From: a virus
Taxonomy: Duplodnaviria > Heunggongvirae > Uroviricota > Caudoviricetes
DNA length: 40,638 nt
Direction: 5' to 3' (one strand)
IMG/VR virus record: IMGVR_UViG_2778261641_000011
Of this stretch, positions 2,827 to 40,638 are shown piece after piece. Each line of letters opens with the position of its first letter. Position 1 is the first letter of the stretch. The notes beneath the pieces were generated by a model, which saw nothing but the letters and a program-made list of their open reading frames with translations, had not been told where the DNA came from and made no database searches. Made by a program: the position numbers and the translations under genes.

Positions 2827-3075
2827 ATGCGTATTGAAATCTGCATAGCCAAAGAAAAAATGACTAAAATGCCAACCGGTGCTGTGGATGCGTTAAAGGA
2901 AGAATTAACCCGACGCATCAGTAAACGTTATGACGATGTAGAGGTGATCGTAAAAGCCACCAGCAACGATGGCCTTTCTGTTACACGCACCGCAGATAAG
3001 GATTCTGCAAAAACTTTTGTTCAGGAGACTCTGAAAGATACCTGGGAATCTGCTGACGAGTGGTTTGTTCACTAA
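2827..3075 (+). CDS. dinI: DinI-family damage-inducible protein
   Basis: 82-aa product [11 protein letters not shown]...[16 protein letters not shown] closely resembles E. coli DinI (MRIEVTIAK ... QETWESADDWFV). LexA boxes lie upstream. Confidence 0.85.
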
Positions 3076-3140
3076 TTAACACGTAAAATCGGTAACGGCT
3101 GGAAATCATTCAATAATCGCACTATCGAAAGTTCGCCAGC

Positions 3141-3782: not shown

Positions 3783-4203
3783 GAGTGCTTCTCCTGTTGT
3801 AAAAACAGGAGAAGAGGCGAAATATCACCTGATTCAGAAAAATATTTCAAAGGTTGGTTTGGGAGAAGCGGCAAAACGGAATGTGGGAACAGGGGAAAAT
3901 CAGATACCAGATATGTCTGCATTTCCATCTGGCAAAAACTGGTTTCAGTTACCAAGTGGTCATATTGTCCAAATGTTTTCGATGAATGTTTATGGGGCGG
4001 ACACTAACGGAACTACAGGTAATTTCCCTATTGCATTTCCTTCAGGCGCACTGGCTGTTAGTGCCTTATGGTCAGATGGCACATTAACGGCTGCTCCGAC
4101 CTTTAAACTTATGGGGTACACGACAACAAGGACATCAGTAACCTTAAAAGTATCAACCGGAAATGGTTTGTATGGAACTATGATTATCGCAATAGGAAGA
4201 TAA
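3781..4203 (+). CDS. Alternative tail-fibre C-terminal variable segment (Sv'-like); silent in this orientation
   Basis: ORF in frame across the crossover site, sharing the GLGE codons with the expressed tail fibre. No independent RBS; only the part from ~3857 would be expressed after inversion. Confidence 0.5.
   Translation: MSASPVVKTGEEAKYHLIQKNISKVGLGEAAKRNVGTGENQIPDMSAFPSGKNWFQLPSGHIVQMFSMNVYGADTNGTTGNFPIAFPSGALAVSALWSDGTLTAAPTFKLMGYTTTRTSVTLKVSTGNGLYGTMIIAIGR
3843..3868. other. hix/gix-like 26-bp inversion crossover site (invertase-proximal)
   Basis: atatttcaaaggTTggtttgggagaa. Its reverse complement begins ttctcccaaaccaa, identical over 14-15 bp to the site at 5704-5718. Confidence 0.6.
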
Positions 4204-4204
4204 T

Positions 4205-4648
4205 ATGAATCAATATATTTATTCCCCTTCGGAAAATGCTTTTTATGCTGTTAATTTAAAAAATACTTATGAAGCAAATGGAACATGGCCCGCTGATGCA
4301 TTAGATATTCCTGATGACATTTCTGTAAAATATATGGCGGAACCGCCACAAGGGAAAATCCGAGTTGCAGGGGAACATGGTTTTCCCACATGGGCTGAAA
4401 TACCTCCACCATCACATGAGGAACTTATTGAACAGGCCGAATCAGAGAGGCAATTATTGATTAACCATGCCAACGAATACATGAACAGTAAACAATGGCC
4501 CGGTAAAGCAGCTATTGGTCGTCTGAAAGGTGAGGAACTGGTGCAATATAATTTGTGGCTGGATTATCTGGACGCACTGGAACTGGTCGATATTTCCAGT
4601 GCTCCAGATATTGAATGGCCTACGCCTCCGGCAGTTCAGGCCAGATGA
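4205..4648 (+). CDS. Alternative tail fibre assembly chaperone (U'-like)
   Basis: 147 aa with the typical Tfa N-terminus MNQYIYSPSENAFY and C-terminal region. Convergent with the active Tfa gene, as in the Mu G segment. Confidence 0.7.
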   Translation: MNQYIYSPSENAFYAVNLKNTYEANGTWPADALDIPDDISVKYMAEPPQGKIRVAGEHGFPTWAEIPPPSHEELIEQAESERQLLINHANEYMNSKQWPGKAAIGRLKGEELVQYNLWLDYLDALELVDISSAPDIEWPTPPAVQAR

Positions 4649-32569: not shown

Positions 32570-33195
32570 GCGTTAGTTTCTCCACAACCAGAAGCAATCG
32601 ACGCCACGACGCCCGGAGCTGCACACTCGCGGGCGTTACTCTTTTCCGGCGCACAAAAAACACGAAATAACAGTGTTAAATGCTCCTGCCACTTCGCCAT
32701 TACTTGGTAGCTGTTCTCTTCGATTTGCTCACGCTCAGCCTGGTCAATAACTCCATCAGCAGTTGCCTTGCGTAAGTACTGGGAATGCTTGCCAATCCAT
32801 TCTATTGACTCCATCAGCCGCTGATTAATGTCACCATTGTCAATGTCATCAATGACCACCAGCGGCACAAACACCCCATTACTACGACGGGCTATCGCAT
32901 CCGTTACATGCCTGGTACCACTGGCATCCTGTAAAACCATGGCCCACTCAAGTGGAAAAATTTGATCCCCACCGCTACGCAGTCTGTTATGCAATTGATC
33001 TTTTGCTGGGGTGATATCATCAGATTTATACAAACCAAGAATTTCTGCTGCTTCCTCATAGCCATGAGGTAAATCAGCAATCGTTCTTCGTATTGCTGCC
33101 ACCAGCCATGCTGGCTGTTTATCAACTTTCCATTCAGGTTCTTTACCCACGTTTAAGTCCTCATATCTGTGGTTTCTGTAAATCGATTTATCCAT
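32566..33195 (-). CDS. Putative cII-like early regulator (function uncertain)
   Basis: Position immediately after cro. Start placed at the internal Met (MDKSIY; alternative MKNLMDKS at 33207); the track ORF reaches 33264 and would overlap cro. Confidence 0.4.
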
Positions 33196-33388
33196 TAGAT
33201 TTTTCATAAAGCTCAGGTTTAAATGGCAACCGTCCGCAAGTTCTATATGCAGCCTCTGCTGCACGTCCTTTTGGAATTAACTGGCCAGGACGGTTTCGCC
33301 ACTGATAAACGGCTTCAGTTGTTATGCCGAAAAAAGCAGCAACTTTCTCAATGCTGCCGAAGTAGCTTTCGATATCGTCAGTCGTCAT
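33188..33388 (-). CDS. Cro-like HTH regulator
   Basis: 66 aa; HTH (KVAAFFGITTEAVYQWRNR); divergent from the cI-like repressor. Confidence 0.7.
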   Translation of the reverse strand: MTTDDIESYFGSIEKVAAFFGITTEAVYQWRNRPGQLIPKGRAAEAAYRTCGRLPFKPELYEKSNG

Positions 33389-33394
33389 ATGCCC

Positions 33395-33465
33395 TCCAAA
33401 CTAAGTTTTATTAGATGTTAATTATCAATCTATCTTAGGTCAATAAAAACTAAGATTACTTAGTA
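33395..33465. promoter_or_regulatory. Divergent promoter/operator region (OR-like) with repeated AACTAAG half-sites
   Basis: aaactaag at 33398-33405; inverted repeat CTAAG-atta-CTTAG at 33450-33463; cttag at 33434-33438. Confidence 0.4.
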
Positions 33466-33485
33466 ATTAAAGAAATGGTGCTCCT

Positions 33486-34112
33486 ATGGAAACGGTTGGT
33501 CAGCGTATAAAAGCTCTGAGAAGGGTTACCAGAACGTCCCAGAAAGAATTGGGTAAATTTTGTGGAGTAAGTGACGTTGCTGTGGGGTACTGGGAGAAAG
33601 ACATCAATGTCCCTGGTGGGGAAGCACTTTCAAAATTAGCGAAGTTCTTCAATACGTCAATAGATTACATTCTTTATGGTGCTGAGTTTGAAGGCAAACT
33701 CGTCACAAACATGCGCAGAGTTCCTGTAATCTCGTGGGTGCAGGCTGGGCAGTTTACTGAGTGCAGGACAGCAGAAGTGTTTAGTGAAGTAGACAAGTGG
33801 GTAGATACATCATTAAAGATTGGTGATAACTCATTTGCATTGGAGGTTAAAGGCGACTCCATGACTAACCCTAATGGCCTCCCAACAATACCAGAAGGCG
33901 CAACAGTGATTGTAGATCCTGATGCAGAACCCCGGCATGGAAAAATAGTCATCGCTAGACTTGATGGAACAAACGAAGCCACAGTAAAAAAATTAGTTAT
34001 CGATGGCCCTCAAAAGTTTTTAGTGCCATTAAATCCCCGGTACCCCAACATCCCGATCAATGGTAATTGCCTCATCATTGGTGTAGTCAAAGGAGTTCAA
34101 TACGAACTCTAG
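33486..34112 (+). CDS. CI-type prophage repressor (HTH plus S24 LexA-like peptidase domain)
   Basis: 208 aa; N-terminal HTH (TSQKELGKFCGVSDVAVGYWE); Ala-Gly site (VQAGQF); Ser in GDSM and Lys in TVKKL. Confidence 0.85.
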   Translation: METVGQRIKALRRVTRTSQKELGKFCGVSDVAVGYWEKDINVPGGEALSKLAKFFNTSIDYILYGAEFEGKLVTNMRRVPVISWVQAGQFTECRTAEVFSEVDKWVDTSLKIGDNSFALEVKGDSMTNPNGLPTIPEGATVIVDPDAEPRHGKIVIARLDGTNEATVKKLVIDGPQKFLVPLNPRYPNIPINGNCLIIGVVKGVQYEL

Positions 34113-34131: not shown

Positions 34132-34166
34132 AAAACACCGAACTAAGAAAAGTTTGGTGTTTTCTC
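34132..34166 (+). terminator. Hairpin terminator downstream of the repressor gene
   Basis: 13-bp stem (aaaacaccgaact / agtttggtgtttt, one mismatch) ending in a U-run. Confidence 0.5.
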
Positions 34167-34170
34167 TTGC

Positions 34171-34196
34171 CATTAAAACTAAGTTAAGTTAGATTT
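34171..34196. promoter_or_regulatory. Candidate OL-like operator with the same AACTAAG motif
   Basis: aaaaCTAAgttaagTTAGatttt, partially palindromic and sharing aaactaag with the OR region. Confidence 0.35.
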
Positions 34197-34297
34197 TATA
34201 TCAAAGATAACGAACAGGCAGGACGCCCACGAAGTAGCCGCCGGTGGCGTATGAATGACCGGATGATTCGTTAAATACTATGTGTAAGAGAGCGCAA

Positions 34298-34501
34298 ATG
34301 AACCGTTATTTCACATGCTCGTTTTGTGGCGCAAACGAGCTGCAGGCAAAAAAAATCATCGCCAAAGGCGGAAAAGATGAAGTTGCTATCTGCTCTGAGT
34401 GCGTAGTCTTGTGTGTCGGGGCATTAATCAATATCAGCACAACTATTCAGTTCACACCAAATGAGAATGCGCCTTTAGATGCGCGGAAATCTGGAGGTTA
34501 A
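34298..34501 (+). CDS. Small protein with a ClpX-type C4 zinc-finger (ZBD-like) N-terminus
   Basis: 67 aa from the Met with a GAGAG RBS (track ORF from 34280). CSFCG...ICSECV matches the ClpX N-domain pattern CSFCGK...YICDECV. Confidence 0.55.
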   Translation: MNRYFTCSFCGANELQAKKIIAKGGKDEVAICSECVVLCVGALINISTTIQFTPNENAPLDARKSGG

Positions 34502-34509
34502 AGAACAAA

Positions 34510-34785
34510 ATGAAAGTCCAGATTTTAAACAATAGTGGTGAAGTCGTTTGGTCATACGACATAGCCGCTCCTGTAGATCAGAGCGGCGATAGCTGGACCA
34601 ATGGGAAACATCAGATTATGGCTGGAGTTGTATTCTCTTTACGCCGTGCTTTGGAACAGGCTGAAGTATTTCCATCAGACCCTGAATGGAAATGGCCTTT
34701 TTCTATTTGTCCAAATTCGGAGAGCACATTTCAGAAAATTGGTCAGAAAGTCGCACTCGAAGAGCATCAGCCAACTGTTTCCTGA
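34510..34785 (+). CDS. Hypothetical protein, co-oriented with the ClpX-ZBD-like gene
   Basis: 91 aa; strong RBS (ggaggttaaagaacaaaATG); 8-nt spacing from the upstream gene. Confidence 0.5.
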   Translation: MKVQILNNSGEVVWSYDIAAPVDQSGDSWTNGKHQIMAGVVFSLRRALEQAEVFPSDPEWKWPFSICPNSESTFQKIGQKVALEEHQPTVS

Positions 34786-34948
34786 TTTTTTCAGGTAACT
34801 CGTCGGCATCGCAGAAACAACAACGCTCGATCATGTTGAAAGCCGATTCGTAGAACTGTTTCTGCTGAGTGTCGCTGAGACAGGAAAAGAGCGACGTTAC
34901 GATGATTTTATTAATTGCATTATCAAGTTCTTTTTCATCAAAAGTCAT
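34703..34948 (-). CDS. Hypothetical small protein, convergent with 34510-34785
   Basis: 81 aa; AAGGA RBS; the 3' ends overlap by 83 nt, so one of the two calls may be wrong or shorter. Confidence 0.35.
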   Translation of the reverse strand: MTFDEKELDNAINKIIVTSLFSCLSDTQQKQFYESAFNMIERCCFCDADELPEKIRKQLADALRVRLSDQFSEMCSPNLDK

Positions 34949-35189
34949 TTGATTTTCCTTTTATGTATACGGGCTTAAAAGGATACCACCGAGCCTGAAG
35001 TGGTGAAAAGACAGGCACATAACAGCTAAGTATTTTCAACCAGAGAGAATCCTTAGCGTTGTGGTGAATGCGGCTCAGCGCACGCGGGTTAAGGTTGAGG
35101 CTGACAGTCGACCTTCTGTGGATACCCACCCGCCTGGTGTGCAACCTTCGCCAGGCACCGGGAGGCACCCGGCACCACAACTTTATGCT

Positions 35190-35248
35190 GTGTGTAGTCT
35201 TGGCGGTACCAGCTTGTATCCTTGCTTCCGGCTGGTACCGCTCTTTTT
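35190..35248 (+). ncRNA. Candidate small RNA or attenuator: 10-bp hairpin plus U-tract inside a ~400-bp structured non-coding leader
   Basis: cggtaccagc (35204-35213) pairs with gctggtaccg (35231-35240), followed by ctcttttt. The surrounding 35040-35434 has no credible ORF. Confidence 0.25.
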
Positions 35249-35249
35249 A

Positions 35250-35336
35250 CAAAACAGAGAAGAGCATCACCGGACGACGGGCTCATAACCCAATCCATCC
35301 GGGCGGCAGTCACCGCAGGTGTTCTTCTCTGTTTTG
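35250..35336. repeat. 16-bp inverted repeat enclosing ~55 nt of GC-rich sequence
   Basis: caaaacagagaagagc (35250-35265) versus gttcttctctgttttg (35321-35336), 15/16 complementary. Confidence 0.5.
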
Positions 35337-35461
35337 TGGAGAAACTAACCGCCCCTACGGGGGCATTCATGGAAATGTAATTGACTCAATAATCGCCGGA
35401 CGGTGAGGGCTTCCTTTTACCCGAATTCAGCGCGGTGCAGCGCATATACGTGGAGAACAAA

Positions 35462-39129: not shown

Positions 39130-39252
39130 TCAACAACGGTACATCCTATCGAGCATTGGTGCAACGCTAAACCGACCACTCCAGTGAACGTCAGTTTTTT
39201 CAGGCATTGCGCTGGTTTGGTTGATTTTTTGCATTTCAGAATTACCGTGCAT
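39130..39252 (-). pseudogene. dusA: Displaced original 5' end of host dusA (attR), fused to phage sequence
   Basis: Encodes MHGNSEMQKINQTSAMPEKTDVHWSGRFSVAPMLD, about 75% identical to the N-terminus of the intact dusA, then diverges into RMYRC-stop at the crossover core. Confidence 0.7.
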
Positions 39253-39258
39253 TTTCAA
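39149..39258. repeat. attR: host-derived copy of the dusA 5' end
   Basis: Imperfect direct repeat of 1476-1585 sharing the tcgagcat core at 39149-39156. Confidence 0.7.
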
Positions 39259-39615: not shown

Positions 39616-40638
39616 TTATTTCGCCGATTTAACCCCGAATAAATCATAAATTAAATTAGAAGTATCTGTAAGTATTTTAATCTTTTCCTTTGAGTTTGGG
39701 TCAAACGACTTAGCAAAGTCAATTAATTTCGGTGCAGCATCTCGCATTTTGCTTAAAATATCAGGTTCGAGCTTTCCTTCATTCACCAGAAGTGACATTT
39801 TATCCAGATAGTCATCAAATTTCATCCCCCCCCGGTCCGCCAGATGCTTCATCTCTCCCAGGTACTTCTTCATATCACGTTGAGATAATTCTTCAAACTG
39901 AGCTGTCAGATAGTTCTCATTATATTCATTAATATTCACTTTTTCTGCTCCGGCTAAATCTGTGTAGGCACTAGAATATGAAAGTGAAATTAACAGCGAA
40001 GCAAATAATTTTAAGCTGTTGTCATCATGTTCCTGGCAGGCATTAACAAACGTTAAAAAACCAGAACCTATTGCTTGAAAATGTATATTCGCTAAAGGTT
40101 CATTATCCTTAGATTCCTCATAAAATAGCTGAACCGTGGAGGGAAGGCCATTCTTAGTTTCTACATCAAAAGTACATCGTTCAATGGGAGTCGCATCTTT
40201 ATTATCCCCAGGATTACATATACTATTAATCGCGAAATGAAAAATAGCCCGGTCAACAACTGATGCAATAAAGTCACGATCGTTTAAATCCTCATCAGTG
40301 CAATCGTCAATATACTTATTGACCCACACTTTGAGATTAGTTATTTGCTCAATTAAAAACACATTTTTTTTACGTGCATGCCATAAATTATGAGTGATTC
40401 TTTGAATAAACAAATCTATTTTTGCAATAATTATATCCCGATGACGCAGCGCTGAATAATCAATAGACTTACCATATATATTATTTAATTTACCTTTGAT
40501 TGTACCTCTATTATCTAATTTATCTTTGGTTGCATCTATATTATCTAATTTATCTTTGTTTGCATCTTTATTATCGAATTGATTTGAATTGAGTGTTTTA
40601 TTAAAGTATCCAGTTGCACCGGGTATTATCTTCAACAT
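39616..40638 (-). CDS. Host-flank hypothetical protein with a KD-rich tandem-repeat N-terminal region (possibly 5'-truncated by the window edge)
   Basis: 340-aa ORF reaching the last base of the window; AT-rich; N-terminal region repeats KDKLDN-type units. Confidence 0.5.
40481..40593. repeat. Tandem ~30-bp direct repeats (about 3.5 copies) within the host ORF
   Basis: ttatctaatttatctttggttgcatctata-like units at 40481, 40511, 40541 and 40571. Confidence 0.55.

Follow-up and report, generated by a model that had tools for sequence, protein, structure and literature searches.

The stretch of DNA analysed here (the window) comprises 40,638 nucleotides of a tailed virus (IMG/VR record IMGVR_UViG_2778261641_000011; Duplodnaviria; Heunggongvirae; Uroviricota; Caudoviricetes), and the subject of this work is an interval of about 400 nt within it, at 35040-35434, that a sequence-only reading had described as a structured non-coding leader preceding a rightward early operon. 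Upstream of the interval are a gene for Cro (33191-33388, - strand) and one for a cI-like S24/HTH repressor (33486-34109, + strand). On its 3' side lie genes for a YfbR-like HD hydrolase, a DUF551 protein, an Rv2179c-like exonuclease and a PrtN/Xis-like protein; the Pfam match of the first of these to the YfbR-like family is weak and below the cutoff (24.5 vs 25.9 bits). From the layout of repressor, Cro and downstream genes, the operon is the repressor-distal recombination and excision side, the equivalent of lambda pL, and it is rightward only in window coordinates. The phage that carries the interval is a lambdoid of the SfV/ST64B/e14 type, and the interval itself is 100% identical to Escherichia phage SKA5, 97% to Shigella phage SfII and about 96.6% to SfV. 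We consider it highly probable that three RNA modules (here called A, B and C and identified below) make up the interval as a mosaic, all on the + strand of an early operon under repressor control. The earlier description of an early, repressor-controlled operon was right, but its single leader has to be replaced by three joined modules in a pL equivalent. That the 400 nt form such a mosaic, and that the inverted repeat within them is a separate, conserved tRNA-like RNA, had been overlooked. The full explanation, in which the parts and a proposed mechanism are combined, is on balance favoured, and the mechanism taken by itself (small RNA (sRNA) action, attenuation and processing) is put forward tentatively.

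The interval is structured throughout. For 35028-35255 the minimum free energy (MFE) is -90.1 kcal/mol, compared with -74.0 +/- 4.8 for dinucleotide shuffles (z -3.4), and for 35245-35440 it is -74.4 kcal/mol compared with -54.7 +/- 4.6 (z -4.3); in neither case was any of 200 shuffles as good. Structured RNA begins 5' of 35040, at about 35025-35055, and the untranslated stretch extends to 35461, since ATG 35462 is the most likely start of the gene that follows. Both ends given earlier had to be moved outward, but the structures listed between them were found in place. The hairpin with a U-tract reported at 35204-35248 has perfect 11-bp arms (35203-35213/35231-35241) followed by TCTTTTT, the inverted repeat reported at 35250-35336 has arms of 25 nt (35249-35273/35313-35337) that are 84% complementary, and the GC hairpin GCCCC-TAC-GGGGC is present at 35351-35363 exactly as stated.

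The interval is non-coding, since its four overlapping open reading frames (ORFs) have no Pfam match and the frames are not conserved in homologues: every frame contains at least two stops in mEp460, LLS and phiNP, and the frame that is open in the window is not the one open in e14. The sequence-only reading had likewise seen no credible ORF here. If the interval nevertheless encoded a small protein, this would be the YmfH-like ORF at 35068-35406, which is open in the window for 112 amino acids and is labelled 'hypothetical protein' or 'protein YmfH' by the NCBI pipeline; a RefSeq coding sequence (CDS) covers the match in most genomes, and in K-12 it bears the name ymfH. Against such a gene stand the absence of a Pfam family, the unconserved frame, the Arg/Pro/Gly-rich composition of the predicted product and the fact that substitutions preserve RNA pairing. 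The negative Pfam and frame-conservation tests led us to reject a YmfH-like coding gene, which is extremely improbable. The CDS call ymfH in e14 and the calls mEp460_036 and mEp460_037 in mEp460 are probably spurious.

Module A (35055-35248, + strand) consists of a five-way junction, a single-stranded stretch and a terminator. It is preceded by a small hairpin at 35025-35057 (GCUAAGUAUUUUC / GAGAAUCCUUAGC) that is seen both as an inverted repeat and in the MFE fold. The junction, or core, occupies 35055-35189 according to the Rfam STnc100 alignment and the MFE fold. Its closing helix is formed by GUUGUGGUG (35058-66) and CACCACAAC (35173-81); the core also contains a conserved motif, GGUGAAUGC, and, at 35158-72, the CCGGGAGGCACCCGG hairpin. 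The Rfam/Infernal scan that had been suggested for this region gave no hits in the window at the curated gathering thresholds; at permissive settings it returned STnc100 and DicF. The STnc100 model (RF02076) matches 35028-35250 over model positions 1-206 with 45.2 bits and an E value of 1.6e-8, and because the threshold of 47 bits is narrowly missed we treat module A as a sub-threshold relative. The consensus architecture of the family (closing helix, GAAU motif, CCGGGAGGCACCCGG hairpin and 3' terminator) is recovered in the model alignment, and an independent MFE fold gives the same junction. The same architecture built from different helices is found in mEp460, LLS, phiNP and the dicB leader of prophage Qin, where the closing helix carries a U-A to A-U swap relative to module A.

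Downstream of the core, the stretch UGCUGUGUGUAGUC (35186-35199, + strand) is single-stranded, lies 5' of the terminator and is conserved in relatives. LLS, ST64B and phiNP have kept it, also where they differ in the terminator hairpin, and it occurs in 64 of 133 related loci. Its retention in LLS and ST64B, where the hairpin has been replaced, makes it a candidate sRNA seed. A scan of 8,120 windows for targets within the phage gave a best duplex of about -23 kcal/mol, which is within chance. The module ends with the intrinsic terminator T2 (35203-35248, + strand), recognised from its inverted repeat and fold, which has a perfect 11-bp stem, a 17-nt loop and UCUUUUU with the T-run at 35244-35248.

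Members of the STnc100 family are known as expressed prophage RNAs: in EHEC EDL933 eleven copies are expressed, one of them confirmed by Northern blot (PMC5331693), and PasD is an Hfq-dependent structural relative (PMC8550237; bioRxiv 10.64898/2026.05.13.724894). Module A resembles these RNAs in being located in prophages, in its multiple copies in E. coli, in matching the full 206-position model and in having the UGGUG/CACCA closing helix, the GAAU motif, the invariant CCGGGAGGCACCCGG hairpin and a 3' terminator. It differs in its location in an early pL-type operon beside the repressor, whereas PasD and the reported Stx2-phage copy of STnc100 lie in the late region near Q, lysis genes or stx (bioRxiv 10.64898/2026.05.13.724894; PMC12370729). 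Further departures from the family consensus are the seed-like stretch and the terminator. Judged from sequence and predicted fold, module A is a new, sub-threshold member of the known STnc100 family, a pL-operon variant. The earlier suggestion of an sRNA or a processed RNA suits this module. Since the elements in ST64B, LLS and phiNP fail the threshold too, the pL-operon lineage appears as a sub-threshold branch that routine annotation misses. It is by no means rare, as 3,051 of 5,426 complete E. coli genomes carry the element, which in K-12 lies in e14 beneath the CDS ymfH. Module A is thus a very common prophage RNA, found in more than half of the complete E. coli genomes and set under an immunity repressor. 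This repressor control offers a testable reason for the silence of these sRNAs until induction. In the literature on ymfH, the intE-xisE-ymfH unit of e14 is described as normally silent. In mEp460 (locus L006, 4561-5114) the pL leader, a diverged STnc100-like core and part of module B lie under mEp460_036 and mEp460_037, two CDSs annotated on the minus strand.

A possible relation to the division-inhibiting sRNA DicF had been raised from the opening of the terminator hairpin and from its position, which parallels that of dicF in Qin. Indeed, the 5' arm of T2, which opens with ttGGCGGTAcCAG, is identical to K-12 dicF at 12 of 13 nt, and both hairpins share UUGGCGGUA(U/C)CAG in this arm. The two operons are also alike: both are early and controlled by an immunity repressor, the RNA ends at an intrinsic terminator, and an STnc100-like core is adjacent. 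In Qin this core (34.4 bits) follows directly 3' of dicF as the dicB leader, and in the ban operon of phage P1 a 'dicF-like region' is accompanied by three tRNAs, two module-B-like elements and an STnc100-like core. The order of core and hairpin is, however, reversed: core before hairpin in the window, hairpin before core in Qin. If the hairpin region 35189-35248 were a DicF orthologue, it would be excised from the operon transcript as an sRNA of about 55 nt and, after induction, would keep ftsZ from being translated and cells from dividing. DicF itself is said to have been described in 1990, by Faubladier and co-workers, as produced both by termination and by RNase III/E processing. Besides the arm and the operon position, such an orthologue would be consistent with an identity of roughly 65-70% over a gapped alignment, with the STnc100-like core abutting dicF in Qin and with an E value of 0.029 for the DicF model (RF00039). 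However, this match scores only 21.8 bits against a threshold of 48, compared with 76.7 bits for K-12 dicF itself. The single-stranded seed region 5' of the hairpin agrees with DicF at only about 5 of 12 nt when the sequences are read side by side. In a crude test, the duplex with the ftsZ initiation region reached -28.7 kcal/mol, worse than 97% of shuffles (mean -36.5) and weaker than that of DicF (-38.5), so that ftsZ complementarity is missing. LLS and ST64B, moreover, have an unrelated terminator hairpin at the position of T2 and keep the flanking conserved stretch. On the sub-threshold score, the unlike seed region and the negative ftsZ duplex the orthologue was rejected, and we regard it as very unlikely. 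The parallel with Qin survives as a positional and modular cassette, with the STnc100-like core directly after dicF; family identity does not. Module A has links with the STnc100/PasD family as well as with the DicF cassette of Qin and the ban operon of phage P1.

Module B (35245-35341, + strand) is a tRNA-like three-way junction defined by its fold, by covariation and by a covariance model. Helix P1 closes it with 20 bp between 35249-68 and 35318-37, and when UUUU at 35245-48 pairs with GGAG at 35338-41 the helix grows to 24 bp, so that its extension begins in the U-tract of T2. Enclosed by P1 are the P2 arm (35270-35302) and the P3 hairpin (35303-35316). Within the limits of P2 lies CGGGCUCAUAACCC (35278-35291, + strand), a copy of the anticodon stem-loop of initiator tRNA with the loop CUCAUAA at 35282-88 and the 'anticodon' CAU at 35284-86. 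It is identical at 14 of 14 positions to nt 29-42 of K-12 metZ (E. coli tRNA-fMet), or at 16 of 17 with flanks included, and comprises both the CAU anticodon and the three G-C pairs of tRNA-fMet.

The covariation analysis that had been suggested was carried out on 33 distinct sequences of module B. In these, 96.4% of the cells are paired (95% within P1), compared with at most 50% when the partners are slid, ten pairs are changed on both sides, and none of 500 shuffles reaches the covariation score. The U.G wobble at columns 19/96 is kept in 32 of the 33 sequences, which places the RNA on the + strand; the covariance model R1, whose alignment includes the window, scores the window with 105 bits on the + strand and 39.6 bits on the - strand. 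CGGGCUCAUAACCC is invariant in all 33, although most of this stretch was required by the search patterns. Over 120 viral contigs gave a match in pattern scans for the module, as did 24 species-representative genomes; these genomes belong to about 15 genera, all within Enterobacterales. Nine pattern hits outside this order were rejected as chance matches because the flanking structure was absent. A T-tract directly precedes the module in 132 of 133 copies, and an STnc100-like motif lies 127-235 nt 5' of it in 115 of the 133.

A covariance model built from pL-type copies only also finds relatives in tRNA arrays, in Pantoea phage PA-1 and, twice, in phage P1, with E values of about 1e-7 to 1e-10. 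In the P1 ban operon (locus L010, + strand) the two module-B-like elements (35-40 bits) are fused to the STnc100-like core (33.4 bits) at 2151-2250, 2428-2510 and 2504-2623, and their loops, GUCAUAU and UUCAUAU, retain CAU. As these copies were found by the model alone, they are an independent check on the retention of CAU. The P1 elements lie beneath the annotated minus-strand genes plp and upl, and these CDS calls are possibly spurious. In PA-1 (locus L134, 2997-3110) the order of the modules is reversed, and GUUGUGGUGAAU, the motif with which the STnc100-like core opens, follows immediately on the 3' strand of the helix closing the module-B-like element; from this arrangement GUUGUGG(U/A)GAA is seen to recur at module boundaries, in the window at 35332-35344 and 35058-35070. 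The tRNA-array relatives form a second lineage, carried by Klebsiella-type phages, in which it closes tRNA arrays that lie 3' of Q. They have an acceptor-like stem of 6-7 bp, two arms and an NCCA end, and compensatory changes occur in the third arm. An example is the element at 3007-3076 of locus L008 (others are in L009, L020, L022 and further loci), in which GGCCUG...CAGGCC is followed by NCCA and which starts 6 nt past the CCA of the preceding tRNA. A D arm is lacking, and the element is called by neither ARAGORN nor Rfam. A standard cloverleaf was tried for these relatives by hand and rejected since a D arm and the anticodon arm cannot both form, in agreement with ARAGORN and Rfam.

Module B itself has no Rfam match at E values up to 10, the tRNA model RF00005 matches neither it nor the Klebsiella relative, and ARAGORN finds no tRNA genes in the window. 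A 7-bp acceptor stem and a 3' NCCA are absent from the window; in their place are the helix of 20-24 bp and then GGAGAAAC. Compared with known tRNA mimicry (tRNA-fMet itself, the thrS operator and the tRNA-like domains of tmRNA and Y RNA), module B likewise presents an exact anticodon stem-loop of tRNA-fMet, and its relatives have the acceptor-like stem, NCCA and the location in tRNA arrays. It differs from tRNA in having no D arm and no T-loop consensus, and in the window a CCA-less 24-bp helix stands for the acceptor stem, which leaves it undetected by tRNA detectors and Rfam models. It also resembles RNase III sites such as those of the lambda N leader and T7 early mRNA, and rRNA processing stems, in having a helix of at least 20 bp formed by the flanks of a structured domain and in its place between transcription-unit segments of an early phage operon. 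However, it encloses a conserved tRNA-like junction instead of a simple internal loop, and cleavage here is putative. Module B is not among the families of Rfam 15, and a literature search on the core sequence and on phage mimics of initiator tRNA gave nothing relevant. It is apparently an undescribed RNA, separate from module A, and is best described as a variant of tRNA mimicry. Its importance lies in being a covariation-supported, conserved RNA that reproduces the anticodon arm by which the initiator tRNA is defined, and in linking early-operon leaders to the odd 'tRNA genes' that end phage tRNA arrays.

Another explanation would be that module B is a decayed tRNA gene, a functionless relic of a tRNA cluster, and the inverted repeat a recombination scar at the level of DNA. 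The relatives with NCCA ends in tRNA arrays, the rejection of all copies by ARAGORN and the Rfam tRNA model, and the e14 copy without CAU are in line with this. However, the element has been kept with compensatory changes over about 15 genera and in two operon contexts, its core and loop are invariant where a relic would drift, G.U wobbles are conserved on one strand only, and the placement directly after a terminator is nearly universal (132 of 133 copies). Decay into a relic is therefore unlikely.

Module C (35346-35461, + strand) comprises the GC hairpin and the 5' untranslated region (UTR) of the HD/YfbR-like gene, with the Shine-Dalgarno sequence GGAGAA at 35452-57 ahead of ATG 35462. The GC hairpin GCCCC-UAC-GGGGC (35351-63) marks the joint of the mosaic. 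In SfV and mEp460 two additional genes, yfdP-like and yfdQ-like, displace the module C segment downstream by about 1.3 kb; the window lacks them between module B and the HD-hydrolase gene. In SfV (locus L001, 3913-5315) a hairpin of similar sequence stands at each of two gene boundaries, and the joint at 35346-35363 looks like a mosaic recombination point. The segment is 90% identical to a region of the K-12 prophage CPS-53, and the remainder of module C is an ordinary 5' UTR.

Transcription of the three modules would likely start at a candidate pL promoter (34136-34198, + strand) that was found by a promoter scan and as a repeat of the cI/cro operator region. It consists of TTGCCA (34167-72), a spacer of 17 nt and TAGATT (34190-95), with operator-like ACTAAG repeats. 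Such repeats are present on both sides of the repressor gene (33390-33470 and 34136-34198), and the right-hand set overlaps the pL-like promoter. Phage LLS has the same operators and hexamers immediately 3' of its repressor gene, and because operators and promoter are the same the two phages probably share immunity. Closer to the modules, the + strand at 34950-35060 gave no promoter-like site in the scan, and inspection of the homologues revealed no conserved -10 or -35 element there. In ST64B, phiNP and LLS the repressor gene is followed by 600-900 nt that are free of genes and carry the same RNA elements, and then by yfdP as the first gene; in LLS and ST64B no gene is annotated in the part that separates the repressor gene from these elements. 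The window carries small ORFs (34280-34948) as an insertion between pL and the elements, and homology to LLS and e14 resumes with the hairpin ACCACCGAGCCUGAAGUGGU (34985-35004, + strand), the homologue of which is the first structure after pL in LLS. The ORF right after pL, of 73 aa, has a ClpX-type zinc finger (Pfam E 1.4e-10); it is followed by two overlapping convergent ORFs (34510-34785, +; 34703-34948, -) that match no family.

The long non-coding leaders raise the question of whether the interval acts in cis as a processive antiterminator like the put RNAs of HK022, in which the nascent RNA binds RNA polymerase and takes the place of an N protein; an antitermination element had also been among the earlier suggestions. 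In ST64B, LLS and phiNP the leaders are 600-900 nt long and non-coding, ST64B and LLS have two intrinsic terminators before the first gene, and the authors of LLS report that an N homologue is absent and propose a put-type mechanism (PMC12315714). The modules share with put that they are structured nascent RNAs adjoining terminators in the early operon of a lambdoid phage. For comparison, putL and putR were extracted from HK022, with the putL numbering rebuilt from the cryo-EM paper. A put element is a two-stem RNA of about 70 nt with an A9-G35 platform and non-canonical stem II pairs, and modules A and B resemble it neither in sequence nor in fold. Copies of put stand 3' of both early promoters, putL right after pL, whereas some 850-1050 nt separate modules A and B from the candidate pL; in ST64B and LLS they even lie beyond the first terminator, and the pR side of the window has no second copy. 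STnc100-family members are also present in late operons equipped with Q, one downstream of stx2 (PMC12370729), and the same modules recur in the ban operon of phage P1. We consider a put-like role of the interval improbable. Nearer to the promoter, a conserved leader segment at 34205-34275 (+ strand; GAACAGGCAGGACGCCCACGAAGUAGCCGCCGGUGGC...GGAUGAUUCG) is common to ST64B and phiNP despite their different operators. It folds no better than shuffles and has only short motifs in common with putL and putR (CGAAC.GGC, GGAUGA); a put-like role of this segment is at most a possibility.

Several observations weigh against the three-module interpretation or parts of it. Module A scores below the STnc100 gathering threshold, and the elements of ST64B, LLS and phiNP are likewise uncalled at the Rfam threshold. 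Terminator T2 has a long loop of 17 nt and an interrupted U-tract. Most copies of module B have a mismatch in helix P1 (columns 11/104), and RNase III cleavage is not predictable from sequence. Most of the module B sequences were gathered with patterns that required the anticodon-like core, so that the invariance of this core is partly built in. The e14 copy (K-12, locus L003, 4228-4318), in the region where the CDS ymfH (4042-4353) covers the STnc100-like RNA, has the loop UUAAUAA and has lost CAU, which is consistent with decay in a defective prophage. Finally, we infer the promoter, the RNA ends and the processing of transcripts from the interval.

In view of the above, the following mechanism can be considered for the three modules. 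Upon derepression, transcripts from pL that stop at T2 (35248) would give an STnc100-type sRNA of about 200 nt, which by analogy with PasD could act through Hfq on mRNAs in trans. Terminator T2 would at the same time attenuate entry into the downstream recombination and excision genes. In the read-through RNA the long helix P1 of module B may serve as a double-strand-specific processing site of the RNase III type, and its length of 20 bp, extendable to 24, reaches the roughly 20 bp of nearly continuous double strand that such sites call for. Cleavage of P1 would shorten the sRNA at its 3' end and free the mRNA that follows, with a small tRNA-like RNA released as a further product. The relatives in Klebsiella phages would instead be released as the last 'tRNA' of the array by tRNA processing, so that the long helix of the pL type and the placement in a tRNA array could be two release routes for the same small RNA.

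What such a released RNA might do is more speculative. We think it rather unlikely, yet worth stating, that module B and its relatives in tRNA arrays and phage P1 constitute a class of phage tRNA-like RNAs that present the initiator anticodon arm. In Shigella and Salmonella, tRNA-fMet is cleaved within its anticodon stem-loop by VapC toxins (PMC7180214), and hosts of these phages carry such toxins. Module B could then be a decoy or competitive inhibitor of nucleases that cut there. Alternatively, it might be a ligand of MetRS, IF3 or the 30S P site and re-tune translation initiation early in infection. As a processing signal only, module B would be a neat addition to what is known of phage RNA; should the mimicry be functional, phages would have a new route by which to disturb translation initiation or counter defences that cleave tRNA.

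Some further features were noted that lie apart from the interval. In ST64B (locus L132, 188-376, minus strand) Rfam identifies a C4 antisense RNA (79.7 bits) beside isrK (64.3 bits), in and just past sb41; this site is an immI-like antirepressor control region that is unrelated to modules A-C. Near the right end of the window (40479-40568) there are three tandem 30-bp AT-rich repeats, and a direct repeat of 117 nt with 81% identity is shared between the window ends (1466-1582 and 39139-39255). These repeats may relate to attachment or replication sites.

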